Source: a virus. From it: a stretch of 64,000 nucleotides of DNA. How positions within the stretch are numbered: position 1 is the first letter of the stretch; each line of letters starts with the position of its first letter. A model generated the notes under the pieces. That model had not been told where the DNA came from. It did not search any database and saw nothing but the letters and a program-made list of their open reading frames with translations. The DNA lies in IMG/VR virus record IMGVR_UViG_3300045988_180522, one strand, 5' to 3'. Positions 44,040 to 61,729 of the stretch are shown here, one piece after another. Both the position numbers and the translations under genes were made by a program.

Positions 44040-44981
44040 TTAATATTGTAAGTCAAGAATATTATTCTCATTCCAAGAGAGAGAAATATCCCCGCTTACA
44101 AGACATTTAAATGTATTTATCTTCCTGTTCCTGATATCATTTTCGCAGATCTGGTCTGAAACTTTACTTCCCAGATTCCAGTTAATAATAATAGGACACT
44201 TAGCTGGAATTAAAAGATACCTGACAAATCCCAGCGTGTCCTTATTATCTATAATAGTATACGAATCTTTATATGCCTCTATCAGACTTGTGAACAGAGA
44301 TATATACTGCTTATCGGAGAGGATTAAATGGGTTCCCTTATTTTTGGTATTAACAGAGAAACTATCCTTTGGTATAATATTACTTATCCTGATCTCATCC
44401 ACAAAACTTATTTTACGTATGTGGTCAGTCAGTGAATTTATAGTATCCAGATTCCCTCTCCATATATTCGTATTAACTCTTACTTTTATAGCCGGATTAT
44501 AATATTTAATGGTATTGTAAATTCTTCTTAAGTCCTTCAGTGTGATAAAGTCCTCATTATGAAAGGATATATTTATACCCTGTATCCCTATATCCTCTCT
44601 TACAAGCTCCTTTATGAATGCTTCGTTATCTTTTAGTCTTATCCCATTAGTAGTCAGTCTGACCATATTCAATCCGGTATCAAGTCTTAGTGTAGATATG
44701 AACCCTAATATATTCGGATGCAGCAAAGGCTCTCCCCCAAGTAAAATAGCTTCTTTTATATTATACTTTTCAACCAGGTATCTGATATTACCTAAGGCTT
44801 TACCACAAGGCAAATCAAGGGATCTGTCTGTCTCTGAATTTATACAATAGGCACAATTACACTGACATTTATTTGTGACTACAATGCTTAGGTAAGCATT
44901 ATCGGATACTAATCCTATATCAGTAGGATAGTACCTGTTTTGCTTAAATATTTCAAGTGAATCTATTTGGATTATACTCAT
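44040..44981 (-). CDS. Radical SAM enzyme of unknown specificity
   Basis: 313 aa. It has a CxxxCxxC motif (NKCQCNCAYCINSE), a GGE SAM-binding motif (LLGGEPLLHP) and three additional C-terminal Cys (CPIII...C...C). Confidence 0.75.
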   Translation of the reverse strand: MSIIQIDSLEIFKQNRYYPTDIGLVSDNAYLSIVVTNKCQCNCAYCINSETDRSLDLPCGKALGNIRYLVEKYNIKEAILLGGEPLLHPNILGFISTLRLDTGLNMVRLTTNGIRLKDNEAFIKELVREDIGIQGINISFHNEDFITLKDLRRIYNTIKYYNPAIKVRVNTNIWRGNLDTINSLTDHIRKISFVDEIRISNIIPKDSFSVNTKNKGTHLILSDKQYISLFTSLIEAYKDSYTIIDNKDTLGFVRYLLIPAKCPIIINWNLGSKVSDQICENDIRNRKINTFKCLVSGDISLSWNENNILDLQY

Positions 44982-47585: not shown

Positions 47586-48344
47586 TTATAAAGAAATTTC
47601 TCTCCATATACATCCGAGTTTTACTCCGGACATACTATTAATTTCTTTACCTGTGCGTTTCAATTCCTCTTGGAACTTACACCATTTCTGGTTAGTCTCT
47701 GAGCTCCACCTCTTATAGGAATAACAATTTAATGGGTATCTTGACAGTATATCAGACAAAATCTTAGCTCCTTTATATTTTTTGATCCTTAGATAATAGA
47801 AAATTCTTCCATCCTTTTTTCTTTCAACCTCGATCTCAGGGAATACTCCTATCCTGTTAAAAAATGGGATAAAAACCTGTTCCTGATCCTCCCTGCTAAA
47901 TCTATGAGTACTGATATTATAGTACATCTCATTTTTATGAAGGGATCCATTATCATATATCCATAGAGCTATTCCTAAGTCATCTATTTTATCCATAGCA
48001 TCTTTAAGACTAAGAGACCTTATAGAAGGCAGTATACGGCAGGACCTGGACCTCATACAATATATACTGGTCCTTGAATATCCGTTTTCTTCTACAAAAG
48101 TCTTACTCTTAAACAAATCTCCCAGTAATTGTGATTTGAAGTCTATATACTCCTCATACTTACAATTAGTACAGTAATAGGTGCTATTACTATTTGATGT
48201 ATATATACCTCCATCACCGATCTTTGCTGTCAAAAACACCTGTAATTGTTCTCTACTTAGAGAGTAAAGTTGCTGATTTTCCATTATTGTAGATTTATAG
48301 TATCGTACAAATATAGATAATATTATCAAGCATTCAACAGACAT
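47586..48344 (-). CDS. LAGLIDADG homing endonuclease (double-motif)
   Basis: Motifs FLTAKIGDGGI and GIALWIYDNGSLH. Confidence 0.6.
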   Translation of the reverse strand: MSVECLIILSIFVRYYKSTIMENQQLYSLSREQLQVFLTAKIGDGGIYTSNSNSTYYCTNCKYEEYIDFKSQLLGDLFKSKTFVEENGYSRTSIYCMRSRSCRILPSIRSLSLKDAMDKIDDLGIALWIYDNGSLHKNEMYYNISTHRFSREDQEQVFIPFFNRIGVFPEIEVERKKDGRIFYYLRIKKYKGAKILSDILSRYPLNCYSYKRWSSETNQKWCKFQEELKRTGKEINSMSGVKLGCIWREISL

Positions 48345-48547
48345 TTCTGTCTGTTTGTAGCTATTATCTCTTTAGGAGTTCCCAGCAGTTAACACAGTTT
48401 TACTACGACAAGGTTTTTTAGGTCCATCGTAGGGTGTTATATAAAACTCCACTTTATCATACAGCCATCCTCTGCTCCTGCATTCTCTGAACATATTGAT
48501 CAATGCGAATCTAAGTATCTGAGCTCCGGTGCCTTGTATCGTATTTA

Positions 48548-49282
48548 TTAATAATTATTTAATATGTAATTTGCAAATGATTTTAAATCTTCTACGGATG
48601 CGTTCTGTTTCATAGAATTAGCTAGCTTGGAAATAACCTGAACATTGCCTTTTACATATCCTTTATCAGGATCTATTCTATCTAAAGATATAGAATAGTC
48701 AGATCCTCCTAGCACACCAACAATAAAAGGTTTCCCAAGTATAGGGCATCTGTCAGGAATATAAATATCCTCAGGAGTAAGATTAAATTCAATATTATAC
48801 ATAGAGGCCCTCTTTCTGGCATTATTTAATAATGACATAATCTTACCACGTTCAGACTGCTGATATTTTACATCAATCCTCTTTAGATGTTCTGCATAGT
48901 CAGGATTATGAGTTTTTCTTATTTTCTTATTTATGTTAGATCTTAAGATAGTAATCTCTCTATTCGGACATCTTTGTACTCTCTTCACAGCACAAGGTTT
49001 ACAGACAGAATTTATTCTTCTTCTCTTTTTACTATAAGACCACCCAAATTCAGATAATGGAAGAAATCTATGACATTCATTACACCATTTTAAAGATGGA
49101 TCTGACGATCTTACATAATGGCCTCTAGGATTATAGGAAATTCCATTTTCCTCTGCTAGCCTCTTTAATCTCTCTACTTTCTGATTGTATACTCTTTCTT
49201 TTACGCATTCCTTACATACTACCTTATTAGTAGAGTAGAATTCAGAACTATCCTTTTCTTTTCCACAAATTTTGCAAATCAT
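48548..49282 (-). CDS. HNH-family homing endonuclease with N-terminal Cys zinc knuckles
   Basis: Zinc knuckles CKICGKEK...CKEC and CNECHRF...CKPCAVKRVQRC, and a C-terminal SLDRIDPDKGYVKGNVQVISKLANSMK motif (LDRID...GN.Q..S..AN..K type). Confidence 0.5.
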   Translation of the reverse strand: MICKICGKEKDSSEFYSTNKVVCKECVKERVYNQKVERLKRLAEENGISYNPRGHYVRSSDPSLKWCNECHRFLPLSEFGWSYSKKRRRINSVCKPCAVKRVQRCPNREITILRSNINKKIRKTHNPDYAEHLKRIDVKYQQSERGKIMSLLNNARKRASMYNIEFNLTPEDIYIPDRCPILGKPFIVGVLGGSDYSISLDRIDPDKGYVKGNVQVISKLANSMKQNASVEDLKSFANYILNNY

Positions 49283-49525
49283 ATCTATTATATTTTCTTT
49301 TCACAAACATAATAAGATATATACACAAAAGCAAATTATTAATTATCATTTTCATGATAGATCGGACTATATCATCTCCCTTCTCTTTTTAGAGGATGGG
49401 GAGTGGGATGCTGTGGGCTCATCGTAATGTCCCTAGTCTCTGAACCTTCCTCAGTCTTCCCTGAGGCTCGGCTGCTGATTATCATACAGTTTTCTGCTTA
49501 GATTCCCAGCAATTCTTCCCATTAT

Positions 49526-50062
49526 TCAAGCAATATTCCTATTGCAGGCTGCATACATTCTACAGTAGTTCACCGAAAATTTCTCAGCTTCCGACTTTCT
49601 TTTAAAGTAGTGTCTTACCTTTTTCACCATATCTCTCTCCTCCTGGTCCCTGGGGGACTTCTTTCCGGATCTGTCCTTTGGTATCTCTCTGTACTTGTTC
49701 CAGAATTCCTCTGTAAAGCTTTCTTTCAGCTCACACAGATCATCGAAATCATAGATATGGGCTCTGTGTCCGGTCTTAGGATTTATAATTACATATCCCA
49801 GTCTCATAACTTCCTCTTTCCTCATATTCTGCCACGCTATAAGCCCTTTGAAACCAGATCTGTACCTGTTATCCAGTTCCTTTGCTCTTTCTTCAGAGAG
49901 ACCGAAGTTCTGCATAAGGGTAGTCCATCCTCCCAGATAATTCCACAGGAACTCATACTTCTTTGCTGTATCTCTAAGATCACTGTGATATTTCTTAATA
50001 TCTGCCGTGGACAGGCCTTCCAGTTCTTTGAATACCATCCGGCCAGTCAGTGAGTGCATCAT
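49526..50062 (-). CDS. polA: Family A DNA polymerase, exon 2 (motif B and fingers/palm region); the ORF tail after about residue 110 is probably intron read-through
   Basis: RDTAKKYEFLWNYLGG corresponds to RRxAKxxNFGxxYG. ...LSEERAKELDNRYRSGFKGLIAWQNMRKEEVMRLGYVIINPKTGHRAHIYD aligns with E. coli Pol I [49 protein letters not shown]. Confidence 0.65.
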   Translation of the reverse strand: MMHSLTGRMVFKELEGLSTADIKKYHSDLRDTAKKYEFLWNYLGGWTTLMQNFGLSEERAKELDNRYRSGFKGLIAWQNMRKEEVMRLGYVIINPKTGHRAHIYDFDDLCELKESFTEEFWNKYREIPKDRSGKKSPRDQEERDMVKKVRHYFKRKSEAEKFSVNYCRMYAACNRNIA

Positions 50063-51129
50063 ATTTTGTTATCCCAAAGGCTTTTTATCCTCTGGTTCTA
50101 TAAGTACTGGTAACCTCCTTATAGTTCGGCATATATTTTCACCCTCTTTAAGAGGGGCTGAGAACTCGTGGGCTGTTATATTTATTCAAGCCTATGCTCT
50201 ACAATACTTATAACCCTATTCGCAATGTTATAAGTTATCTCGGTGTTGAATAAGTTACGCTTTCTTGAAAGAAAAATAGTAGCATCTTTATACAAGAAAT
50301 CATATATACATTTCTTTACCTTATCAGAAGCATTTATAATTACTTTCCAATAATCGGTAGTTTTTCCTTGAATATGATATATTCTATATGAGAAATTTTT
50401 AAACCAACCCATTATCTGCTTCATAAAATGTTCTGAATTAAACACAAATTCAACAATACTACATCCCACATGGCCGTCTCCATCAAAGAAGCCTCTTATA
50501 AAATGTCTCCACAATTCCTCAGGTATAGAATCTTCAGGAATATAAAAACTTTTGTCTAAAGTTTTTAGTGGTCTGATATTATACTTAGCTCCTAATGTAT
50601 CGAACATATGTTCAGAAGTCCATTGTAATGTGTAACAAGGTTTTTTCTTTCTGTTATGAGTGTAATTTTTAACTAGTAATGAAGAATCAGGACATATATT
50701 ACTATGTAATGCTTCTATAGCTTCCTTGTCATCTATAGTATTATTAAATGCTATCCTTTTCGTATAGTGTAAATTCCTCTTTTCTAATCTACAACACCCA
50801 TCTGCTACTAAAAATCCAAGTAAGTAGGCTTTCAGTTCGGAATCTATATTATCAAAGAAATAGTCGTTAATTCTAAGTCCTCTTCTATCAAACTTAATAT
50901 TATAGTACTTAAAACAATCACTTACTCTTTGGGAAGAAATACCAAACCGACTTCCTATTTCTCTCTGATTTTTACCTTCTCTCATCATTTGACAGGCTAT
51001 TTCTATGTCAAATCTCTCTAAGCACTCTTTTTTAGTCATTTTATTTATCTATGGCAGTTATTAACTATGCAATAGTATAAATAAAAATCACCATTACCAT
51101 ATTTTTCACCGATTTTTCTCAGTTTTTTA
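50063..51129 (-). mobile_element. Group I intron-like insertion carrying a LAGLIDADG HEG between polymerase exons 1 and 2
   Basis: Exon 1 ends ...GDRLH(VSLYSNI*) and exon 2 resumes (MMH)SLTGRMVF..., matching the PolA DIHT.TA..FG position. The HEG ORF is in the same frame as exon 1 but is separated from it by a stop, so an intein is unlikely. Confidence 0.45.
50182..51039 (-). CDS. LAGLIDADG homing endonuclease
   Basis: Two canonical dodecapeptides, AYLLGFLVADGCC and RHFIRGFFDGDGHVG. Confidence 0.8.
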   Translation of the reverse strand: MTKKECLERFDIEIACQMMREGKNQREIGSRFGISSQRVSDCFKYYNIKFDRRGLRINDYFFDNIDSELKAYLLGFLVADGCCRLEKRNLHYTKRIAFNNTIDDKEAIEALHSNICPDSSLLVKNYTHNRKKKPCYTLQWTSEHMFDTLGAKYNIRPLKTLDKSFYIPEDSIPEELWRHFIRGFFDGDGHVGCSIVEFVFNSEHFMKQIMGWFKNFSYRIYHIQGKTTDYWKVIINASDKVKKCIYDFLYKDATIFLSRKRNLFNTEITYNIANRVISIVEHRLE

Positions 51130-52653
51130 CTATATATTACTATATAGGGAGACATGCAATCTATCTCCACTTCCTTCCAGGAACTCACTGATCATAGCCT
51201 CATCCCTTGAAGCATCAGCCATAAGAACAGACTCTTCCCCTTTAACATCCTGTGATATCCACAGCCATCCCTCCCTTGGAATGAAGCATGATCTGGTTCT
51301 TTCATTCTTAGGAAGATTCAAAAGGTTCGGGTCTGTGGAACTGAATCTGGTGGTATCTGTTCCAAGCTGATGATAATTAGTATAGACCCTCCCGGTCCGG
51401 GGGTGGATATTTTCAAGGAATTTAGGCCCGTAAGTACTGACTACTTTCTCCAGTTTCTTGTATTTACAGTAGAGATCTACAATTTTATGGATATACCTCT
51501 GCGGCTTTATTTTCTTGGCATCACAGGTCTTTTTAAATCCTGTGGGACTATCCTTGTCTTCTACCATAACATCACATCCCAGCTCCTCCAGCAGAGGGAT
51601 TACCTGTCCTGAACTGGACCAGTTGATATCACATACATATCTTTCGGATTCATGAAACATATCGTACTGAGGATCCTCATAGATGTACGGATATTGCGAC
51701 ATTCTCTCATAGGCTATTTTCCTGTATTCCAGATTCCCGTCCTTAACTACCTTGTCCAGATCCGGCCTCCTCTTAAGTCTTTTCCTTTTTACAGGAACAG
51801 TCTTTCCTTTTACTTTCTTTGTCTTGTTGGAATCCTGGACATTGTTTGTAACCCATTCTTTCTGTTCCTCTTTGGACATGGAATAAGGATCGAAATAAAG
51901 GATTTTCCCCGGAGACGGATGTTCCAGTGAATATTCTATTACAGCCTTATTAAGAGCTTCTACAGACTCCTTAAGATCCCTCATATCATCTTCCGCCTTC
52001 TCCATCCATTTTTCCCGGCTTACAATCACTCCGCACCATTCCATATAAGACAGAGGGGCAATAGTCATTCCTTCTATAGCAGCAGCAGTATACAAATCCT
52101 GTCTTCTAAGCTCCTCTTCCTGCTTATCAGCTATCATAAGAAGATATTTCACATCATCACATGCATACACTATTACCTCAGGAGTAAGGCCTCTGGAAGC
52201 TATCTCCGTACGTACGGACTTATCCATACTGACTCCTGCATATCTGTGGGCCAGTCCCTGTAAACTTGCTGAAGGATAAGAAGGGTACCCTAGATATATC
52301 AGCTGTTCATTCAGGAACAGGTCATACATATTCATAATACATATTCTGTGATTATGCAGGTATTTGGCATCAAACTTACCATTAACTACTATAAACTGTA
52401 TGTCCTCAGATTCCAGCAACTCCTTATATAGTTGTATATCAATAGTATAAGTGTCAACAAGGATTTGTATATCAAAGTTTCCAAACTGTATACACCTGAT
52501 ATTCCCTGAATGACAGTCCAGTGAAGTAGTCTCAGTATCGAATCCTATTCTTTTCATACTGCGGAGGATATCCAGGGATTTCTCCACAGACATCCTCCCG
52601 TATTTATCAGAGGTTCCGAACAGGTCAGTATTATTACTTACTACATACCTCAT
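51130..52653 (-). CDS. polA: Family A DNA polymerase, exon 1 (3'-5' exonuclease and N-terminal polymerase domain with motif A)
   Basis: Exo I motif IGFDTETTSLD; TGRV...HQLGTDTTRFSSTDPNLLNLPK corresponds to TGRLSS.DPNLQNIP; motif A-like ISQDVKGEESVLMADASRDEAMISEF follows. The ORF then terminates. Confidence 0.8.
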   Translation of the reverse strand: MRYVVSNNTDLFGTSDKYGRMSVEKSLDILRSMKRIGFDTETTSLDCHSGNIRCIQFGNFDIQILVDTYTIDIQLYKELLESEDIQFIVVNGKFDAKYLHNHRICIMNMYDLFLNEQLIYLGYPSYPSASLQGLAHRYAGVSMDKSVRTEIASRGLTPEVIVYACDDVKYLLMIADKQEEELRRQDLYTAAAIEGMTIAPLSYMEWCGVIVSREKWMEKAEDDMRDLKESVEALNKAVIEYSLEHPSPGKILYFDPYSMSKEEQKEWVTNNVQDSNKTKKVKGKTVPVKRKRLKRRPDLDKVVKDGNLEYRKIAYERMSQYPYIYEDPQYDMFHESERYVCDINWSSSGQVIPLLEELGCDVMVEDKDSPTGFKKTCDAKKIKPQRYIHKIVDLYCKYKKLEKVVSTYGPKFLENIHPRTGRVYTNYHQLGTDTTRFSSTDPNLLNLPKNERTRSCFIPREGWLWISQDVKGEESVLMADASRDEAMISEFLEGSGDRLHVSLYSNI

Positions 52654-53221
52654 TTTTTTTTATTTTATGCCATACTATATACTTATCAAAATCTATCTTC
52701 CACTTGTGCTTGTCGAAGAATTCACTTCCGAGGATTCCTGTAACATTAAGGCCCTCCCTGTTGCTGAACTCTCTCAGTCCTTTCAGGTCTGAGACCAGAA
52801 AGTCCTCATTGAATTCCATATTCCTGATATTAAATCTGACCTGCATACCATAGGAATCCATAATAGCTCCGTTCCCCACCTGTATCTTATCTCCTTCGGC
52901 TATTGTCTTCCCTTTCAGCTTATCCTTTATAGTATACAGGAATTGAATATCAAGGCAGTTCTGGTGAGCTCCGGAATCCAGAAGGAACCTGCATTTCTTA
53001 CCATACAGGTGAACAATGATCATCGGAGTCTTTGTCCTTTCGAAATAATCCTCAAAAGAGAAAAACTCCCATTCTTTTGTATTCTCATTGTTCCTGTTCA
53101 GATCCCTTGAGATTCTCAGGGTAATAAGATATACCGGCCACAATGCCAGTAATAAAAATGCCAGACATACCATCCCCATATTACCTCCTTCCGGTGGAGC
53201 CGAATCCTCCTCTGGACTCAT
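52634..53221 (-). CDS. Membrane-anchored retropepsin-like (clan AA) aspartic protease
   Basis: The track start at 53251 is TTG; the first ATG is at 53221. It has a TM helix ([21 protein letters not shown]), a catalytic [12 protein letters not shown] motif (D-S/T-G-A) and a C-terminal [12 protein letters not shown] motif (ILGxDFL type). The stop overlaps the polymerase start by 20 nt. Confidence 0.6.
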
Positions 53222-54633: not shown

Positions 54634-55124
54634 GTCTTCATTTTGTTTTTAATTTCTTCAATACACTTCTTCATGCTGTGTACCGTCGTTACTTCAAAAA
54701 ACCTCACCTCCAGGCCCTGATGGTCTGATTTGTTCAGGTAATCTATAAACAGTTTTCTCTTTACAGGGTATACATCATTCCTGAATCCTTTTACCTCTAT
54801 AATATCCAGAACATTACCATGCCTGTATACAAAATCAGGGGTATATGTAAGGTCACGGAGTTTCCTGATATCAGGCTGAAAGACAGCTGCCTGTCCTCTT
54901 CTGCTGTATGTACTCCATACCTGTACATTATCAGGGTAGTCCCCTTTCATGAGTATTATCTTTTCAGGCTCATACTCCAGTCTTATTCCTTCTCTCAGGG
55001 CATACCTGTACATATTCAGTTCAGCCTTCGACTTAAACTGTATACCATCGAAGAATCCGGGGGTGGCATTTTTAATCTTCCTGTTCTTATCAGAATGGGA
55101 GATCGTCTGTTTCTTCTTCATCAT
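54630..55124 (-). CDS. T7 endonuclease I-like Holliday junction resolvase
   Basis: 164 aa; YTPDFVYRHGNVLDIIEVKG matches the T7 gp3 signature YTPDF....EVKG. Confidence 0.6.
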   Translation of the reverse strand: MMKKKQTISHSDKNRKIKNATPGFFDGIQFKSKAELNMYRYALREGIRLEYEPEKIILMKGDYPDNVQVWSTYSRRGQAAVFQPDIRKLRDLTYTPDFVYRHGNVLDIIEVKGFRNDVYPVKRKLFIDYLNKSDHQGLEVRFFEVTTVHSMKKCIEEIKNKMKT

Positions 55125-55803
55125 ATTCAGGTAATAACCATTTGAATTCAGTCCCCATATTCTCCTTCATGAACCTGTTTATCCTGGCAAACGGATCATC
55201 TGTCATTCTGGTATTACTACGGGCAAAATAAGCAGGATGTTCACATTTCAGTATACATGCCGCATTCTGCACTGCCGGAATGAAGGAGGCTGCCTGAGCC
55301 CCGAAGAACAGCCATATTACATCTGTTCTGTCGGAAGAAAACATTCTGATAAAGGTATCTGTAAATTCCCTCCAGGCAGCCTGATGGCTACCCGGGGAAT
55401 TTACCTTTACAGTAAGGGCTGAATTTATCATCAGTATTCCCTGAGACACCCATGACTCAAGAGTGGGATCGAATCTGGCTTCATCAGAAGGCCTGTAAGA
55501 AGAGATCTCAGGATGCAGGATACATTCCTTCAGTATCTTTAAAGAAGGACTTAAATCTTCGGATTTGGTACCTTCTTTATTGCCGAACAATATTCCCGTA
55601 GCTACTCCTTTTTGAGGGTAGGGATCCTGTCCCACTATAACAAGCCAGGTCCTGGAGGGGTCTGTAAGATGAAAGGCACGGAATACCTTATCTATTTCCG
55701 GACACATATTATCTGTATCCTTATCTATAGATGTGAGGGTATTCATGAGCACCTGTTCATTCATATAGACTCCCCATTTACCTAATAATTCATTTTTGAT
55801 CAT
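55090..55803 (-). CDS. ung: Uracil-DNA glycosylase, family 1-like
   Basis: FRAFHLT...[22 protein letters not shown] corresponds to [36 protein letters not shown] corresponds to the water-activating loop GVLLLNAVLTV; and ...LFFGAQAA...LKCEHPA corresponds to HPSP. Confidence 0.85.
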   Translation of the reverse strand: [237 protein letters not shown]

Positions 55804-56365
55804 ACAATTGATTGATTATAACATTATAATTCTTACTGAGATACGCAGTTACAAACTGATCTGCATTCTCCAGAGCCTTCATCTTTACTGAAGGGGTCAC
55901 AACAGTATACTGTTCCTTATCGACAGCCTTTACAGAAAGAGTAGTATAGACGGAATGGATAGTGTATTCTAACGATACAGCTGTATTTATCAGTCTTGTC
56001 ATATCTGCTTTTGATAATACAGGAGCATCATAATTTATATAAATCTCTTTTTTATCAATAAAGACAGAGAGGATGACCTCCTTGTCATATATAGCTGTCC
56101 CTGCTATACACAGCATATTGGATCCTTTATACTGTAGTATGTATGGACTATTCCTACTACTACTTATAGTGTGTATAGCCTCCTTCAGAGATTTTGCCAC
56201 CATTATACGATCTATACATGGAATGTAGTACTTACCTTCATTGTTACCGACCTGTATCAGGTAATCATGCATATCGTTATTATTCGCATGATATACACGT
56301 ATTAGTGGAGAGGTGTTACAGTAAGCTCCATCCAGTATATTGCTTAATGTATACATTTCCATCAT
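55790..56365 (-). CDS. Hypothetical protein within the Ubl-cassette operon
   Basis: 191 aa with ATGA overlaps on both sides. Confidence 0.35.
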   Translation of the reverse strand: MMEMYTLSNILDGAYCNTSPLIRVYHANNNDMHDYLIQVGNNEGKYYIPCIDRIMVAKSLKEAIHTISSSRNSPYILQYKGSNMLCIAGTAIYDKEVILSVFIDKKEIYINYDAPVLSKADMTRLINTAVSLEYTIHSVYTTLSVKAVDKEQYTVVTPSVKMKALENADQFVTAYLSKNYNVIINQLYDQK

Positions 56366-57057
56366 TCGATAAATTTAGTGGTCATCAAAGGACCGTGATA
56401 CTCCATAAAGAAGGGGGCATATCTTTCCGACTGCATGTATACCTGACACAGCTTGTTGACAAATACATTGGCTATCATTCCTCCTATCTGCATAGCCATA
56501 AATGCAGTCTGTTTATAGGAGCAGATCTGTTCCTCAGCCTCTGCATCACTGAAAAGATACTGCTCTTCATATCTTTCCATATTCTCCTTCTCACTGCTTT
56601 CCATACATATAATCTGATACATTTCGGCACTTAGTCTGCCATCTATAAACACAGACTTACTTTTGCTATCAACATTACGTTTCCAGGCTTCATAAACTTC
56701 CCTTCTTGATTCCATATTATCAAGGCATGATATAACATGTCCTGAGAATACTTTGTTCCTGGTTACCCTCTCCCTGTAGCATCCTGTCCATGGTATAACC
56801 CTGAATGCCTCCAATACTCTCTTCATAGATACAGCCTTACTTTGTCCTATAAGACTATCGAAATACATCTGTCCGGCCATATTCTCAGGAGAAACTACAT
56901 CGGGGTCTATAAGATTCATACTCTTTACACCGAGCTTTCCTATAGCAAAAGAGGTCCAGCTTCCTATACCTCCGAGTCCTACAATATTCGCATGTTGGTA
57001 TTTTAACATTTCGAACCATACAGCCCCGGAGAATCTTTGTGTACAATTTTCATTCAT
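56362..57057 (-). CDS. E1-like enzyme (ThiF/MoeB/HesA family, minimal adenylation domain)
   Basis: ANIVGLGGIGSWTSFAIGKLGVKSMNLIDPDVVSPENMAGQMYF is a Rossmann GxGxxG followed by the ..D.D.V..SN..RQ pattern of E1 and ThiF proteins. Confidence 0.75.
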   Translation of the reverse strand: MNENCTQRFSGAVWFEMLKYQHANIVGLGGIGSWTSFAIGKLGVKSMNLIDPDVVSPENMAGQMYFDSLIGQSKAVSMKRVLEAFRVIPWTGCYRERVTRNKVFSGHVISCLDNMESRREVYEAWKRNVDSKSKSVFIDGRLSAEMYQIICMESSEKENMERYEEQYLFSDAEAEEQICSYKQTAFMAMQIGGMIANVFVNKLCQVYMQSERYAPFFMEYHGPLMTTKFIE

Positions 57058-58070
57058 AATGTCTTCAATTTACTTTCAACTAATTCAAGGATAGGATCCA
57101 GACTGTCATCCTCATAATCACATATATACCTGATTACCTTTTCCAGGATCTCCTTCTTCTTATACTTAGGATCTATATCCTCCCACATCCTGTAGTACGG
57201 CGGATTACTGTCGGCCTCATCGATAAGTTCGGATACTATACTGTCTACATTATCCAGACGCAGGAATCCGGATAATACCTTACATACTCCTGTATCAATG
57301 TCATTGTTCTGGCAGGAAGCTCTTTGTATAATACCCTGTGATATATCGGTGCTTTTCATATAAGCTGAGGGCCGGTATGGTATAATACTCTTATAGTCCC
57401 GATGTTCAGAAAGCCAGTCTCTGTTTGCTGTCATACATGGTGCCTTACGTCTTGATATTTCCCTTGCCGTAGATAAGGGAGATTCAGGGAATTTAAGGAA
57501 GGATTTCGGATATTTTACATCCAGTGAGTAAGTCTCTATCTGAGTAGAGGTAAACTTCTTCTCACCTGTATATATGGTATTTCCGTCAGGATCTGTGTAT
57601 GATCCTTTCAAAGTACCATTATAAACTACTTTCCTTGTTATTCTGGCCTCGTAGGTATGACTTGAATCTACCACCAGTGACAGGAACCAGTTCTTTTCCT
57701 TCCCTTCACTTGCCAGGGTCTGCATATCTTCCCCTGAGAAGAAAGCCCCCATGCGGTGATGTGAGTGTATGAGCCCTATACTGCTGCCCTCAAGTTCATT
57801 ATCAGATATGAAAGCTGCTATGTACCTGTTAACATCATTACTGTCATATTGAGTATGTACGGATGTTCCTATATCAAGTATGAGAATATCCTTTACTACA
57901 GCGGAAATCTTTCCTTTTCTGTCTTTAATACTGTAAAACAAAACTCCTGACCACTCAGTGTCAGGAAGTTCGAAGATAGCCCAATCTATCTTATTCTGAA
58001 TGTCCCTGGGAATTTCTATATTTCCTATATTTCTCAGGGATTGCTCGTTCTGATGTATATTTTTCTGCAT
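57054..58070 (-). CDS. JAB/MPN+ (JAMM) metallopeptidase with a ~190-aa C-terminal extension
   Basis: Perfect JAMM motif in GLIHSHHRMGAFFSGEDMQ (H-x-H-x7-S-x2-D) with an upstream Glu in FELPDTEWSG. The start overlaps the 3' end of the E2-like gene by 80 nt. Confidence 0.8.
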   Translation of the reverse strand: MQKNIHQNEQSLRNIGNIEIPRDIQNKIDWAIFELPDTEWSGVLFYSIKDRKGKISAVVKDILILDIGTSVHTQYDSNDVNRYIAAFISDNELEGSSIGLIHSHHRMGAFFSGEDMQTLASEGKEKNWFLSLVVDSSHTYEARITRKVVYNGTLKGSYTDPDGNTIYTGEKKFTSTQIETYSLDVKYPKSFLKFPESPLSTAREISRRKAPCMTANRDWLSEHRDYKSIIPYRPSAYMKSTDISQGIIQRASCQNNDIDTGVCKVLSGFLRLDNVDSIVSELIDEADSNPPYYRMWEDIDPKYKKKEILEKVIRYICDYEDDSLDPILELVESKLKTL

Positions 58071-59112
58071 AAGCGGTTAATAAAGATTCAACAATATCGA
58101 CGAATACACTATACACCTTTGGTTGTATAAAGTATCGGAAATCGGGAATAATATCATCTTTCGGTTCTACACGGAGTCTTACAGGACTGCCTTTAAACAT
58201 GAACAGTATACGTTCAATATCCGGGTCAATGTCAGTTATTTCAGGTGCATTATACCTATATATATATCCGAAACTATCCTGAAATCCTCTATATAAGGGT
58301 ATATCCAAGTAACAGTCCTCAGCTAAATCTGATAATATAACTGCCAGTTCTTCCGGTGTATAACTGAGCTTTACCCTTCCGTCACATTCTGCAAGCTTTA
58401 TATTACCTGATACCAGAAAGGTTTTTACAAGATACTTTATATCCGGTATACTTACAGATACGTTACTTGTATCCGAATACTGTGTATATATAAGTCTGTC
58501 GGACTTTTCTATATTCAGATCTGCCATATACTGATAGGGGCCTCCGGATACAGACTCCACATGTATGTACTGATCCAGTAATACAGGAAGAGTCTCTGTA
58601 AATCCAGGTTCCCATATAGATTTCATAGTACTTATTACAGTACTCAGGGCTGTTTTCCCAAGACAACATGTCCTAAATGCCCCTGACAGGTCTAAGTTAC
58701 TGTGACAATGTGAATGGATATACCCTCTGCATGCCTCGATATATGAGTAGGTACCTCTGTTCATTCTTATGCCTTCTACGGACAGCATAAGGTTGTTAAA
58801 TGTAAGTTTGATATACAGATCCTTTATAGTATGCGTTTCTTCTACTTCATTCTGTATAATAACCTCCGGGCGGTATATAATAATTGTAAATGCTGGTGTG
58901 TTCAAACCTTCGCTATGTCTACTCAGTATCTCGTTTATGGCATCATCGAATGTGTCACATTTCTGTATAATATCTTCATACATAGAAAGTAATTTTATCC
59001 TTTCAGAACAGACATCCTCATCTACATACTCCTCCCCGAAATAATCATTAAAGGAGGAGAGGAGGCTATCGAATCTCCGATATACCTCCTCAATGGCCTC
59101 ATCTACTGTCAT
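57991..59112 (-). CDS. UBC/E2-like protein with N- and C-terminal extensions
   Basis: Central segment YIHSHCHSNLDLSGAFRTCCLGKTALSTVISTMKSIWEPGFTETLPVL set against the UBC signature HPNI...G.ICLDIL...WSPALTISKVLL: an HxN motif, a Cys 10-11 residues downstream, then W.P. Confidence 0.55.
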   Translation of the reverse strand: MTVDEAIEEVYRRFDSLLSSFNDYFGEEYVDEDVCSERIKLLSMYEDIIQKCDTFDDAINEILSRHSEGLNTPAFTIIIYRPEVIIQNEVEETHTIKDLYIKLTFNNLMLSVEGIRMNRGTYSYIEACRGYIHSHCHSNLDLSGAFRTCCLGKTALSTVISTMKSIWEPGFTETLPVLLDQYIHVESVSGGPYQYMADLNIEKSDRLIYTQYSDTSNVSVSIPDIKYLVKTFLVSGNIKLAECDGRVKLSYTPEELAVILSDLAEDCYLDIPLYRGFQDSFGYIYRYNAPEITDIDPDIERILFMFKGSPVRLRVEPKDDIIPDFRYFIQPKVYSVFVDIVESLLTAYAEKYTSERAIPEKYRKYRNSQGHSE

Positions 59113-59792
59113 CTCAGGTACTTAAGTTCTTCCTTCAATTCTGACAGAAGGTTTTCGGTTTCATTCTTCCTGACAGATCCCTCCCTGATACTATTAATGT
59201 CAGTATCACTCAGGATTCCCTTATTATACAGGCAATTCAGCAGGCTATCCAGTCTGGCTGCGGACCATACAGATTCTGTACCACAGGGTTCCGGCTTATT
59301 TTCTTCCTCTTTGTCCTTCTCCATAGTATCATACACTGCCTCCAGGACCTCCTCCTTCTTATCCTGTACCTTTTTCTTATTACCTGATGTACGTTCCATT
59401 TTTGTTATGAAGGCTGTAAGGTTATCACTTGATACCTGTGTGTAATTCCTTCCAAATTCTTTTTTCACATCCTCCTGTAAACCTCTTGAGACAATCATTT
59501 GGTTAATTTCTTTTCTGGATAATGTTCCGGAAGATACTTTCTTGTTCGGAGTCATTAGGATAATAGACAATTCACGTGTAGGATTCCCACGGAACATCAC
59601 AGTGTCAGGAAGAAGGCTCTGGTCATCCGTAAGCATAGTTCTTGATCTTCCTTCATGGAATTCCTTACCACTATAATTGATTCCGGCATTATCCAGCTCC
59701 CTTTTCAGTTCTCCAAGGGTTCCTGCTGTACTTTCAATCTGTTTTGCCCAGCTAACTGTCTCATCTGTAATTCTGATAATTCTACTTTCCAT
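59109..59792 (-). CDS. Protein with an N-terminal ubiquitin-like (beta-grasp) domain candidate and a ~130-aa C-terminal extension
   Basis: The N-terminal 95 aa is MESRIIRITDETVSWAKQIESTAGTLGELKRELDNAGI...SIILMTPNKKVSSG. TLGELKRELDNAGI is set against the ubiquitin alpha1 DTIENVKAKIQDKEGI, and the domain would end near SSG. The protein does not end in GG. The call is by inference. Confidence 0.35.
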   Translation of the reverse strand: MESRIIRITDETVSWAKQIESTAGTLGELKRELDNAGINYSGKEFHEGRSRTMLTDDQSLLPDTVMFRGNPTRELSIILMTPNKKVSSGTLSRKEINQMIVSRGLQEDVKKEFGRNYTQVSSDNLTAFITKMERTSGNKKKVQDKKEEVLEAVYDTMEKDKEEENKPEPCGTESVWSAARLDSLLNCLYNKGILSDTDINSIREGSVRKNETENLLSELKEELKYLR

Positions 59793-59817
59793 AATCTGAT
59801 TGTTTTAATATTGATTG

Positions 59818-60849
59818 TTAAAATGGTATATCATCCGGGTCCTGGGGGAGTCCTATCATATCCCTGAGTACCCGGGTGGCCAGTTTCCTTCCATGATTTT
59901 TTGTAAGGTCACTGGGATCTTTTGATTTGTATAAAGACGGGATTTCTATCTGATGCAGGCTATATTCATCACACAGCTTCTCAGAGTACATCCTGCCGTA
60001 ATTGATTTCCTTATTGAAATCATTGTCGAACAGCACATGTATATTTTCGAACCTTTGTTTCAGTGAAGATATAACATGAGGCTTAGGGACATATCCTTCA
60101 CCTTGCAGACTTGTCGAGGGTATACCTGTGCAACACCATACACACATGGCATCCTTCCGTGAGGAAGTGATTACCAGATGGTTTCCTCTTTCAGGAAGCA
60201 GTGTCCACAGGTCCCATACAGACCTGTCATGCTTGCTTATCCATTTAAGATGGTCACTGAAAGGCTGGTAAATCTTAATGGTAGGATTTCCGTCCTTGAA
60301 TTCAACATATACATAGGCATATTTATCGGCAGGCATAGAAGTAGTCTTTCCTTCCCTGATAAAGAATATGGTGCTGATAGGATAGGTATTCGAGATATCC
60401 AGAAACCACTTATCCACTCCCTGCTTTTCCCAGAACTCATAGTCATAGGGCCTCCAGTCTCTGGTTTTCACCCTGACATCCGACCCCTGGTGTGACAGAG
60501 GGGATCCCTGTTTTCCGGAAACAGATCCTGACAATTTTTTTTTGTCAGGAACCCTCCTGATATCAGACAAATCCCTGCATAACCTCCTGAATGCCTCCTG
60601 TGCAGTACAGGCCCACATCAGGCTCAGGAGATCCAGTACCCTGCCTGAATCTCCTCTTGCCTGGTCTTTGAACCTGATATGCCCGTCCATACCCTGAAAG
60701 ATGCTCAGTGAGGGTTTCCTGTCAGGTCTGTACGGCGCATTTATTATACATGGAAGTTCCGTGATTCCCAGGTAATATGAGATTATCTGAAATTCACTTG
60801 CTATTCTGTATAGACTGTTAAGATCATCAGGACGGGCAGTCAGTATCAT
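59818..60849 (-). CDS. DnaG-like primase with a degenerate (Cys-less) zinc-binding domain and a TOPRIM-like region
   Basis: The N-terminus APYRPDRKPSLSIF...GHIRFKDQARGDSGRVLDLLSLMW..QEAFRRL is set against the CHC2 finger CPFH.EKTPSF...YHCFGCG.GGDVIDFVM..EA, with all four ligand positions substituted. A later VLFDNDFNKEG matches the TOPRIM DxD. Confidence 0.5.
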   Translation of the reverse strand: MILTARPDDLNSLYRIASEFQIISYYLGITELPCIINAPYRPDRKPSLSIFQGMDGHIRFKDQARGDSGRVLDLLSLMWACTAQEAFRRLCRDLSDIRRVPDKKKLSGSVSGKQGSPLSHQGSDVRVKTRDWRPYDYEFWEKQGVDKWFLDISNTYPISTIFFIREGKTTSMPADKYAYVYVEFKDGNPTIKIYQPFSDHLKWISKHDRSVWDLWTLLPERGNHLVITSSRKDAMCVWCCTGIPSTSLQGEGYVPKPHVISSLKQRFENIHVLFDNDFNKEINYGRMYSEKLCDEYSLHQIEIPSLYKSKDPSDLTKNHGRKLATRVLRDMIGLPQDPDDIPF

Positions 60850-60865
60850 ATTATGCTGTTTTTTT

Positions 60866-61729
60866 TTATTTTTTCACCCACTTTGATTTTACTTCTTCCA
60901 CTGTGGCGGCTTTTGTTTCAGGAGCCTTGAATGTGGTAGGAGTCTCTGTATATTCCTTAAACACTTCATCTCCGAACTCCACATTCTGGTACATTCCCGC
61001 TGCCTTACATCTGGTGATGTTATTCAGGATGAAAGAACAGTTACGGGCTGCTTTTCTGCCGAATTTAGCAGGGAAGAAAGTCTGATAGTTATTGTTGTTA
61101 CTGTCTTTCTGTACTCCGAACCACACCTTGGTACAGTTATCAGGGAACAGGGAAAGAGCTTCCACTACTTCTGAGACATCCCCGGAGAAATAGTCACCGA
61201 TTCTTTCCAGTTGCAGAAGTGCAGTTTCAGGATCTTCAATCTCCTTCCATTCCTTATCCTGCGTCATATACATACGGGAGGGCACATTCAGGTGGGTACG
61301 GATAAATTCCAGTAATGAATCCTCCCCTGAATAGGCCTGTCTTACCCCCTCAGGTGAGAAATTCATATTACCGGGGATAACACAGTTGTCATAGTCTTCC
61401 TGTGACAGCCATGCTGTTTCCCCGTAGGCATTTACGCACTGACACTTATTTCCGGCAGAATTGAGCCTTGCTGTATCCCTCAGGAAGAATTTCACAGGCA
61501 GGATATCCTCTACCCCTTCAATATCAGGCTTGGTATACAGGGTAATATTCACCCATCTCACACCATCCTTTTCCCCGGTATATACAGGTTCCTTATCAAC
61601 CTTCCACCCGAATTCCTTTTCCAGCTCGTCCTTTGAAGGATTTACCAGCAGCACCTTCACCGGAGCCACTCCGGTATATAACTTCCTTGATACAGATTCT
61701 TTCGACTCTTGTGCTTGTCCTATTTTCAT
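60866..61729 (-). CDS. Hypothetical replication-module protein (possible ssDNA-binding or annealing partner of the AAA_24 ATPase)
   Basis: 287 aa. Assigned from position only, between the primase and the AAA_24 ATPase. Confidence 0.3.
   Translation of the reverse strand: MKIGQAQESKESVSRKLYTGVAPVKVLLVNPSKDELEKEFGWKVDKEPVYTGEKDGVRWVNITLYTKPDIEGVEDILPVKFFLRDTARLNSAGNKCQCVNAYGETAWLSQEDYDNCVIPGNMNFSPEGVRQAYSGEDSLLEFIRTHLNVPSRMYMTQDKEWKEIEDPETALLQLERIGDYFSGDVSEVVEALSLFPDNCTKVWFGVQKDSNNNNYQTFFPAKFGRKAARNCSFILNNITRCKAAGMYQNVEFGDEVFKEYTETPTTFKAPETKAATVEEVKSKWVKK

Follow-up and report, generated by a model that had tools for sequence, protein, structure and literature searches.

The window analysed here is a 64,000-nucleotide stretch of viral DNA (IMG/VR record IMGVR_UViG_3300045988_180522), in which four consecutive minus-strand genes encode a predicted ubiquitin-like protein (Ubl) precursor, a candidate E2-like protein, a JAB/JAMM peptidase and a ThiF-type E1 adenylating enzyme. 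It was judged rather probable that this cassette forms an autonomous phage Ubl-conjugation pathway, situated within the replication-stage ('middle') module of a crAss-like phage. An earlier reading of the bare sequence (the original prediction) had interpreted the four proteins as a complete Ubl-conjugation set, and this interpretation is partly supported, in that the E1, the JAMM motif, the predicted Ubl fold and the gene arrangement all stand, whilst the HxN/W.P signature from which an E2 had been deduced does not.

Components of the putative conjugation cassette

The four open reading frames (ORFs) were recovered by an ORF check exactly where the original prediction had placed them (Table 1), together with the ATGA stop/start overlaps that it had described at 59109-59112 and 57054-57057; a third such overlap (56362-56365) joins the E1 gene to the 191-aa gene that follows it. 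The 80-nt overlap between the E2-like and JAB genes (57991-58070) is likewise present and is forced, since the ATG at 58070 is the sole in-frame start upstream of the JAB residue Glu39. The ORFs are considered real genes because at least 14 separate phage lineages carry orthologues of all four with their order unchanged and because the ratio of non-synonymous to synonymous substitution rates against close strains (dN/dS; pairwise estimates at low divergence, indicative only) is 0.09-0.53 for the Ubl, JAB and E1 genes. In nearly every lineage the E2-like gene runs into the beginning of the JAB gene, the two sharing 11-170 nt and commonly ~60 nt when the first ATG of each ORF is taken as its start (loci L002-L020), and this conserved long overlap could reflect translational coupling.

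Table 1. Positions in the window of the cassette genes, of features within their products and of the gene that follows them
Feature	Position	Strand	Basis or remarks
Ubl precursor, 227 aa	59109-59792	minus	ORF list
Predicted ubiquitin-like beta-grasp domain, aa 1-89, ending ...NKKVSSG	59526-59792	minus	AlphaFold2 and Foldseek
Gly89 codon, predicted JAB processing site and mature Ubl C-terminus	59526-59528	minus	Invariance and disordered linker
Predicted small helical domain, aa 93-135, R93...N116-Y-T-Q119...L125	59388-59516	minus	AlphaFold2 helices and conserved columns
E2-like candidate, 373 aa	57991-59112	minus	N-terminal helices, UBC-superfold core (predicted), C-terminal alpha/beta domain without known fold
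Putative UBC-like core, ~aa 70-200	58513-58905	minus	Three long beta strands, Y-I-H-S-H loop, Cys150, helices
Y131-I-H133-S134-H135, proposed HPN counterpart	58708-58722	minus	Family invariance
Hypervariable loop, aa 137-148, between H-S-H and Cys150	58669-58704	minus	Multi-allelic among close strains
Cys150 codon, candidate thioester cysteine	58663-58665	minus	Family invariance
JAB, 338 aa	57054-58070	minus	Poorly conserved C-terminal extension
JAMM core, Glu39 (EWSG)...His102-Ser-His104...Ser112...Asp115	57726-57956	minus	Motif invariance
E1, 231 aa	56362-57057	minus	Minimal single ThiF-type adenylation domain
Cys179 codon, candidate E1 catalytic cysteine	56521-56523	minus	Crossover-loop region, LF-x-D...C-S-Y-K
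191-aa gene (p191), 3' of E1	55790-56365	minus	ATGA-coupled; variable slot, not established as a system member

The most securely assigned component is the E1, which matched Pfam ThiF over aa 16-228 (1.9e-20, its 73.5 bits being well over the 28.1-bit cut-off) and carries at aa 27-32 the GLGGIG motif that had suggested a ThiF/MoeB-type enzyme. When a profile of 13 orthologues was compared with the PDB, UBA5 was the best match (4e-13), followed by PaaA, MccB, TcdA, UBA3, ThiF, Uba1, UBA6, MoeB, SAE2, Cap2 (2e-7) and BubCD (3e-6); because of this spread, the protein is regarded as a generic minimal member of the E1-like superfamily and not as orthologous to one of the bacterial conjugation E1s that have been characterised. 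PADLOC Cap2 models matched it only at aa 16-93, the nucleotide-binding region. Pfam detected no separate Cys domain, rhodanese domain or fusion partner on the 231-aa protein, and the N-terminal extensions of its orthologues are of low complexity only.

Invariant positions of the E1 include R8, G27, G29, D51, D53, N59, Q63, K74, D113, R118, R141, Y163 and C179. Three of these (R8, K74 and D113) we take to be the counterparts of the MoeB ATP and Mg ligands R14, K86 and D130, and the position of MoeB R73 is presumably occupied by an invariant Gly (N-M-A-G-Q). Further along, C179 is invariant in 13/13 orthologues, as are Y163, L168, F169, D171 and K182. This region was aligned by eye with LFGENALTC187 of MoeB and C184 of ThiF, and Cys179 is thus a candidate catalytic cysteine and the putative crossover-loop equivalent of those two residues.

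The ubiquitin-like segment that had been proposed at the N-terminus of the 227-aa protein was borne out by structure prediction. AlphaFold2 gave the beta-grasp order of elements (beta-beta-alpha-beta...beta) in aa 1-80, with a predicted local distance difference test (pLDDT) score of 81-92, then a disordered stretch at aa 84-89 (KKVSSG), three helices at aa 93-135 (pLDDT 80-87) and a disordered remainder. Nearly all Foldseek matches to this model were ubiquitin or Ubls (template modelling score on the target 0.55-0.74, probability 1.0), among them the BilA Ubl (8tyx_A) and B. fragilis ubiquitin. At the level of sequence, the precursor had no informative family match in Pfam, PADLOC or PHROGs, a Pfam scan of 19 family members returned nothing relevant, and no similarity to the Bil proteins in the PDB was detectable.

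Gly89, which follows the predicted domain, is invariant in two sets of diverse orthologues (13 and 19 sequences) and Ser88 nearly so, with the Fpv20 orthologue reading KSGG at the same place; orthologues of the precursor include crAss001 gp79, DAC15 gp048 and Fpv20 gp58. None of the orthologues terminates at the conserved Gly, so that processing would be needed for all of them. The JAB enzymes of BilC/BilA and BubCD/BubAB are known to pre-process a Ubl fusion by cutting behind a conserved Gly, and by analogy the phage JAB would cleave after Gly89. The helical domain beyond this site is possibly HeH/SAP-like; the Pfam HeH match, weak (E 0.028) and confined to a single family member, does not establish its identity. 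Most orthologues end in an amphipathic motif, approximately (Y/L)-S-x-x-E-I-x-x-M-F, behind a long acidic disordered stretch (L002 4893-5570, L003 5116-5856, L005 2577-3338, P0043, P0045, P0046 and P0050), and this motif may be a docking peptide. The C-terminus of the window protein (...LLSELKEELKYLR) diverges from it.

The JAMM motif H-S-H-x7-S-x2-D, recognised from the start in the third protein, lies at aa 102-115 and held up in alignment, with E39, H102, H104, S112 and D115 invariant in 11/11 intact orthologues; the Pfam Prok-JAB match falls just under the cut-off (8.3e-5; 22.9 bits against 25). A phmmer search aligned the motif with that of CSN5 (4e-4), and the family profile matched P. 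furiosus JAMM1 (5lda; 0.0024) best, along with CSN5 and a Caldiarchaeum Rpn11-like protein. Conservation is weak in the C-terminal half.

Insertions were noted at the JAB gene in several relatives. In Fpv20 (L004 4710-7002) and in L016 (5839-8116) the gene is interrupted at the H-x-H motif, where a gene on the other strand is inserted (L004 5226-5975, which bears the annotation 'endonuclease', and L016 6417-7058) and a LAGLIDADG-type motif (LGFIAADG) was seen by eye at the N-terminus of its product. Each half of the JAB has a PHROGs family of its own (phrog_21448 and phrog_16107), and the interruption may represent either an intron or a truly split enzyme. A close relative of the window (L008 7060-8335) carries between the JAB and E1 genes an insertion of ~1.3 kb with a 370-aa opposite-strand ORF, the N-terminus of which (MKLTLKTKLIPSEEQ...) resembles, by eye, a TnpB/IS605-OrfB-type protein.

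The E2-like assignment is the weak point of the cassette reading. In its favour, the model of the 373-aa protein has an order of elements compatible with a UBC core, leading from strands at aa 75-119 through Y131-I-H-S-H135 to Cys150, which lies 15 residues past H135 and directly before a helix, and thence through helices to an E-S-x-x-G-x-P loop. Across 151 representatives of the family, with a median identity of 21% to the window protein, Y131, S134, H135, C150, G152, E186, S187 and P192 show no exception (100%) and H133 has a single one (150/151), which yields the conserved signature Y131-x-H133-S134-H135...C150-x-G152...E186-S187..G190-x-P192. Judged by order and spacing rather than by superposition, H-S-H would be the counterpart of the HPN motif and Cys150 the catalytic cysteine. 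The HxN...C...W.P signature on which the UBC fold had originally been predicted does occur in the window protein (H137-S-N139, C150 and W168-E-P170), and its cysteine is the invariant C150, but H137, N139, W168 and P170 vary within the family and HxN...W.P was rejected as the E2 active site.

Several searches returned nothing in favour of an E2 identity. The protein had no match in Pfam or PADLOC and no informative match in PHROGs, and the predicted UBC fold found no backing in hidden Markov models, since none of 88 family members matched UQ_con (PF00179) or any Prok-E2 family in Pfam. The family profile had no match among all PDB sequences, hhalign comparison with four canonical E2s returned a probability of 0.3%, and Foldseek gave no significant match between the model and the PDB.

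Tagging might alternatively be independent of an E2, as in the archaeal SAMP and Thermus TtuB systems, with the E1 alone activating and transferring the tag and with the 373-aa protein acting as a scaffold, a substrate adaptor or a metal-dependent enzyme with a UBC/RWD-like core. Archaeal SAMPylation is not known to involve an E2. We nevertheless consider this explanation unlikely for the phage cassette, as an invariant Cys follows an H-x-H/N-type motif at the E2-like position, with a Pro-containing loop past the next helix, and as the protein keeps strict company and order with the E1, JAB and Ubl over identities of ~20-35%; the list of matches to the E2-like protein also contains two bacterial E2s from conjugation operons. 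H133, H135, C150 and E186 might also be read as a metal site. S134 and H135 of the E2-like protein and Y163 of the E1 are invariant too, which is compatible with oxyester chemistry.

Distribution and divergence of the cassette

Matches to the E1 and to the E2-like protein were retrieved from 76 and 74 GenBank phage records, respectively, these being essentially the same records. The cassette-bearing phages comprise Steigviridae (crAss001 and its relatives, DAC15/17, cr85_1, cr106_1, cr111_1, cr112_1, cr126_1, cr128_1, Kolpuevirus and Kehishuvirus), two unclassified faecal viruses and FpV4-like phages of Flavobacterium psychrophilum. The cassette therefore recurs, as the original prediction had proposed to establish, in related crAss-like genomes, and does so in the same order across the Steigviridae and beyond them in FpV4-like phages and diverse viral contigs: primase-(UDG)-Ubl-E2-JAB-E1 was constant in 20/20 loci, with an E2-like identity of only ~20-35%. 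As judged by tblastn alone, it appears to be absent from other Crassvirales families.

An exhaustive profile search delineated 3,311 clusters (at 50% identity) of the E2-like family, including 3,035 at E<=1e-10, and the best 150 of the 3,311 were nearly all full-length. Two scans of bacterial and archaeal genomes (one genome each for 185,579 species), which were pattern-based and of limited sensitivity, returned four matches, all of them on contigs of metagenome-assembled genomes (MAGs); one of these contigs, at 94 kb, is as large as an entire crAss-like genome. As the scans gave these MAG contigs only, the E2-like family appears to be phage-restricted. The crAss-like contigs with the cassette (L021-L024) are binned in MAGs labelled Bacilli, Acholeplasmatales, Clostridium and Spirochaetia, and these labels are probably binning artefacts and not host signals.

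Recent capture of a bacterial defence operon was considered and rejected, given the fixed order in very distant phages, the huge size of the family and its near-absence from bacterial genomes. From these comparisons of sequence and gene order we conclude that the cassette has in all probability long belonged to the replication module and been passed on vertically with it. Its genes are labelled 'thiamine biosynthesis protein/ThiF', 'metalloprotease domain' or 'hypothetical' in GenBank, and PHROGs lists all four families as being of unknown function. No published account of Crassvirales with a ThiF, JAB or ubiquitin-type cassette was found in a searchable literature that is incomplete, so that an earlier description is possible.

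Among close strains, the E2-like gene was the fastest-changing member of the cassette, several-fold ahead of its neighbours, with a non-synonymous substitution rate (dN) of 0.03-0.06 and a dN/dS of 0.5-1.2, followed by the E1 gene (dN 0.018-0.049, dN/dS 0.33-0.53); the Ubl, JAB, primase and UDG genes gave a dN of 0.004-0.018 and a dN/dS of 0.09-0.45. Changes in the E2-like protein are concentrated at aa 61-72, in the loop at 137-148 and in the C-terminal domain at 261-340, and among 21 sequences of at least 80% identity positions H137, S138, L140, D141, G144, A145 and T148 are multi-allelic. This pattern, which is indicative only as the estimates are pairwise and at low divergence, fits that of a specificity factor under pressure.

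The 191-aa gene after the E1 is also divergent (dN 0.04-0.07, dN/dS 0.75-1.4), and it has no Pfam match and no homologue detected beyond close strains. The slot that it occupies is always filled, in other phages by genes of 190-400 aa that are unrelated to it and belong to several families, and a role for the gene after the E1 as a fifth component was rejected as unproven.

Proposed pathway and competing explanations

Gene presence and order, predicted folds and the conservation of catalytic residues suggest a route in which the chemical steps, the cleavage site and the timing are all conditional. The JAB would cut the 227-aa precursor after Gly89, releasing an 89-residue tag with a free C-terminal Gly and a separate C-terminal fragment carrying the helical domain. 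The E1, which probably forms a homodimer as do MoeB, ThiF and UBA5, would then adenylate Gly89 and load the tag onto Cys179 in the crossover loop, from where it would move to Cys150 of the E2-like protein with the help of the invariant H-S-H. Since the cassette has no E3, choice of the target would fall to the E2-like protein, which might pick a lysine through the variable loop at its active site and through its C-terminal domain, in the way proposed for the Bil E2s. The JAB may in addition strip the tag from targets.

As regards timing, the replication and recombination genes of crAss001 form the 'middle' transcription class, which is switched on at 10-30 min (PMC8375218), and by their position crAss001 gp76-79 would belong to this class. 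Given that the E2-like protein is fast-changing and the set is fixed in the replication module, the favoured target is a host protein, or else a phage replisome or virion protein that is contested by host defences. A broader proposition is that a very large clade of Bacteroidota phages, made up of the Steigviridae, the FpV4-like phages and their relatives in metagenomes, which number in the thousands, has inherited vertically, as one of its core functions, a complete and catalytically competent pathway of the ubiquitination type. Such a pathway would be expressed alongside the replisome genes and would covalently tag a host or phage protein, its E2-like component being drawn into an arms race with the host; this proposition is in our estimation finely balanced.

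The same chemistry could instead serve counter-defence, by interfering with Bil or with Cap2/Cap3 of the type II cyclic oligonucleotide-based antiphage signalling system (CBASS), or by tagging and inactivating some other defence protein of the host; conjugates made by the host would be stripped by the JAB, whilst the phage Ubl, E1 and E2 would serve as decoys or attach tags to host factors. Fast evolution of the E2-like and adjacent genes around fixed catalytic residues is as expected at a host-virus interface, and Bil is known to tag phage tail proteins, tags of a kind that JAB enzymes reverse. The set is, however, fixed in a single order in the core replication module of very distant phages, whereas anti-defence genes are usually patchy and located in accessory regions. 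A lone JAB would moreover suffice to reverse host tags, and the cassette proteins show no specific affinity to Bil, Bub or Cap2/Cap3, which together leave counter-defence an improbable purpose.

A sulfur-carrier role (a ThiS/MoaD/TtuB-like thiocarboxylate at Gly89 serving nucleic-acid or cofactor thiolation during replication) or MccB/PaaA-type modification of a C-terminus is the least credible explanation and very unlikely: the E1 is as close to TcdA, MoeB, ThiF, MccB and PaaA as to true E1s, it lies among DNA-metabolism genes, and JAB, Ubl and E1 sets do occur in sulfur-assimilation operons (Iyer et al. 2006), but no phage-encoded rhodanese, cysteine desulfurase, PP-loop thiolase, ThiG/ThiH/ThiI or MoaE was present in the ORFs scanned (40-64 kb), although the host might supply such a partner, the E1 lacks a rhodanese domain, its similarity to MccB and PaaA is restricted to the nucleotide-binding half, and a strictly linked large E2-like protein with an invariant Cys would be left unexplained.

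Relation to known systems and genomic setting

We file the cassette as a probable prokaryotic E1/E2/JAB/Ubl conjugation system that is virus-borne and built on a sequence-orphan E2-like family. Its closest analogue in design is Bil, which also consists of four separate proteins in the order Ubl-E2-JAB-E1, has no E3 and is proposed to rely on its E2 for choosing targets; the fold matches of the phage Ubl include that of BilA, and JAB pre-processing to expose the C-terminal Gly is established for the Bil Ubl and predicted for that of the phage. Bil is nonetheless a bacterial anti-phage defence, whereas the phage set sits in complete phage genomes. BilD is a tandem IAD-AAD-CYS E1, in contrast to the single ThiF domain here, the phage Ubl has a structured C-terminal domain (predicted), and the E2, JAB and Ubl have no detectable similarity to Bil proteins in the PDB. 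The single-domain E1, the phage location and the lack of sequence affinity thus separate the cassette from Bil.

Nor is the cassette a Bub system. The E2 and E1 of Bub lack the catalytic Cys and use Ser/Tyr oxyesters, whereas Cys150 and Cys179 of the phage proteins are invariant; Bub proteins are fused (Ubl-E2, and JAB-E1 or E2-E1), whereas the phage ORFs are all separate; and the BubE/DUF6527 protease that is always present in Bub had no counterpart (DUF6527/PF20137) among the cassette and module proteins scanned with Pfam. It is these differences (no BubE, no fusions and retained Cys residues) that distinguish the two. Type II CBASS shares the prokaryotic E1, E2 and JAB chemistry, and the match of the phage E1 to Cap2 has been noted above, but Cap2 is an E2-E1 fusion that conjugates the CD-NTase itself, there is no Ubl, and CBASS is a host defence. 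As the scan of the module proteins revealed neither a CD-NTase nor an effector and no fusion is present, the cassette is not a type II CBASS.

Among phage-encoded proteins, TAPI and TAPK of lambda and T1 are the nearest comparison. TAPI has the same layout as the 227-aa protein (a Ubl that ends in a conserved Gly, followed by a linker and then a small C-terminal domain), and its Ubl was predicted to be cut by the JAB peptidase TAPK (Iyer et al. 2006). These two genes differ in lying in a tail-assembly cluster without E1 or E2, whilst the present set lies in the replication module with both. A minimal single-domain E1 is shared with UBA5/UFM1 and SAMP/UbaA/JAMM1, from which the best PDB matches of the E1 and JAB are drawn; those are cellular systems, and the similarity is at superfamily level only.

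The prokaryotic E1/E2/JAB/Ubl systems treated in the papers on Bil, Bub and CBASS are encoded by hosts, and wherever their function is known it is defence against phages. In the present case a virus owns all four components, in the replication module of a highly abundant human-gut phage group. Should the conjugation pathway be real, it would give functions to four conserved Steigviridae genes that are 'hypothetical' or mis-annotated (the E1 being labelled 'thiamine biosynthesis protein'), define a new E2 family of ~3,300 clusters without sequence similarity to known E2s, and present a Ubl that is synthesised fused to a domain which possibly binds DNA. Protein 'ubiquitination' would then be an offensive or developmental tool of bacterial viruses beyond its part in bacterial defence, with a bearing on the evolution of ubiquitin-type signalling and its movement between viruses and cells. 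The cassette is present in cultured phage-host pairs, namely crAss001 with B. intestinalis, DAC15 with B. thetaiotaomicron and the FpV phages with F. psychrophilum, and as these are tractable, the target and purpose of phage ubiquitination are directly testable.

The assignment of the window to a crAss-like phage was upheld by its hallmark head protein, layout and synteny with Steigviridae. Positions 55000-61000 share 97% identity with Dulem virus 41, the circular genome of which (92.9 kb) comes from lemur faeces, and the replication block is syntenic and homologous with those of crAss001 and DAC15, two Bacteroides phages of the Steigviridae (Crassvirales). On the half with plus-strand genes lie a major head protein of crAss type (phrog_11589, 1e-108) and, centrally, three giant ORFs (2474, 2247 and 1331 aa), an arrangement that agrees with the crAss001 layout in PMC8375218.

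Neighbours of the cassette include a primase, the uracil-DNA glycosylase UDG, a DUF1064/Holliday-junction-resolvase-like protein, an exonuclease VIII-like PD-(D/E)XK nuclease and a Sak4-like ATPase. The cassette had been described as part of a replication/repair operon; its place among replication genes is clear, and co-transcription with the neighbours is plausible from the tight spacing, which is at most 59 nt throughout 62893 down to 53390. A scan for sigma-70-type promoters and intrinsic terminators, which excludes Bacteroidota and phage-RNAP promoters, gave no excess of matches over shuffled sequence.

The family-A DNA polymerase of the module is interrupted by LAGLIDADG and HNH endonuclease genes. 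Its fragments lie within 47586-52653, with the exonuclease and polymerase start at 51130-52653 and the middle part at 49526-50062; between them are LAGLIDADG genes at 50182-51039 and 47586-48344 and an HNH/EndoVII-like gene at 48548-49282, and this stretch has the lowest G+C content of the window (31-36%). An aspartyl-protease-like (retropepsin-like) protein (52634-53221) adjoins the polymerase. Farther downstream, a radical-SAM/4Fe-4S protein (44040-44981) is possibly the activase of an anaerobic ribonucleotide reductase, a relative of the phage encoding NrdD.

Within the window, an acidic C-terminus of the form D-[IL]-P-F was found only on the primase (59818-60849, ...DPDDIPF) and the UDG (55090-55803, ...ETDDLPF). 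Similar tails occur elsewhere on the primases of L012 and L013, on the UDG of L016 and on the product of the variable gene right after the E1 in Fpv20 (L004 7666-8754) and L011 (7741-8466), which terminates in D-L-P-F. These tails resemble the C-terminal tip of the bacterial single-stranded DNA-binding protein (DDDIPF), and their common occurrence suggests a shared docking site for the replisome proteins of these phages.

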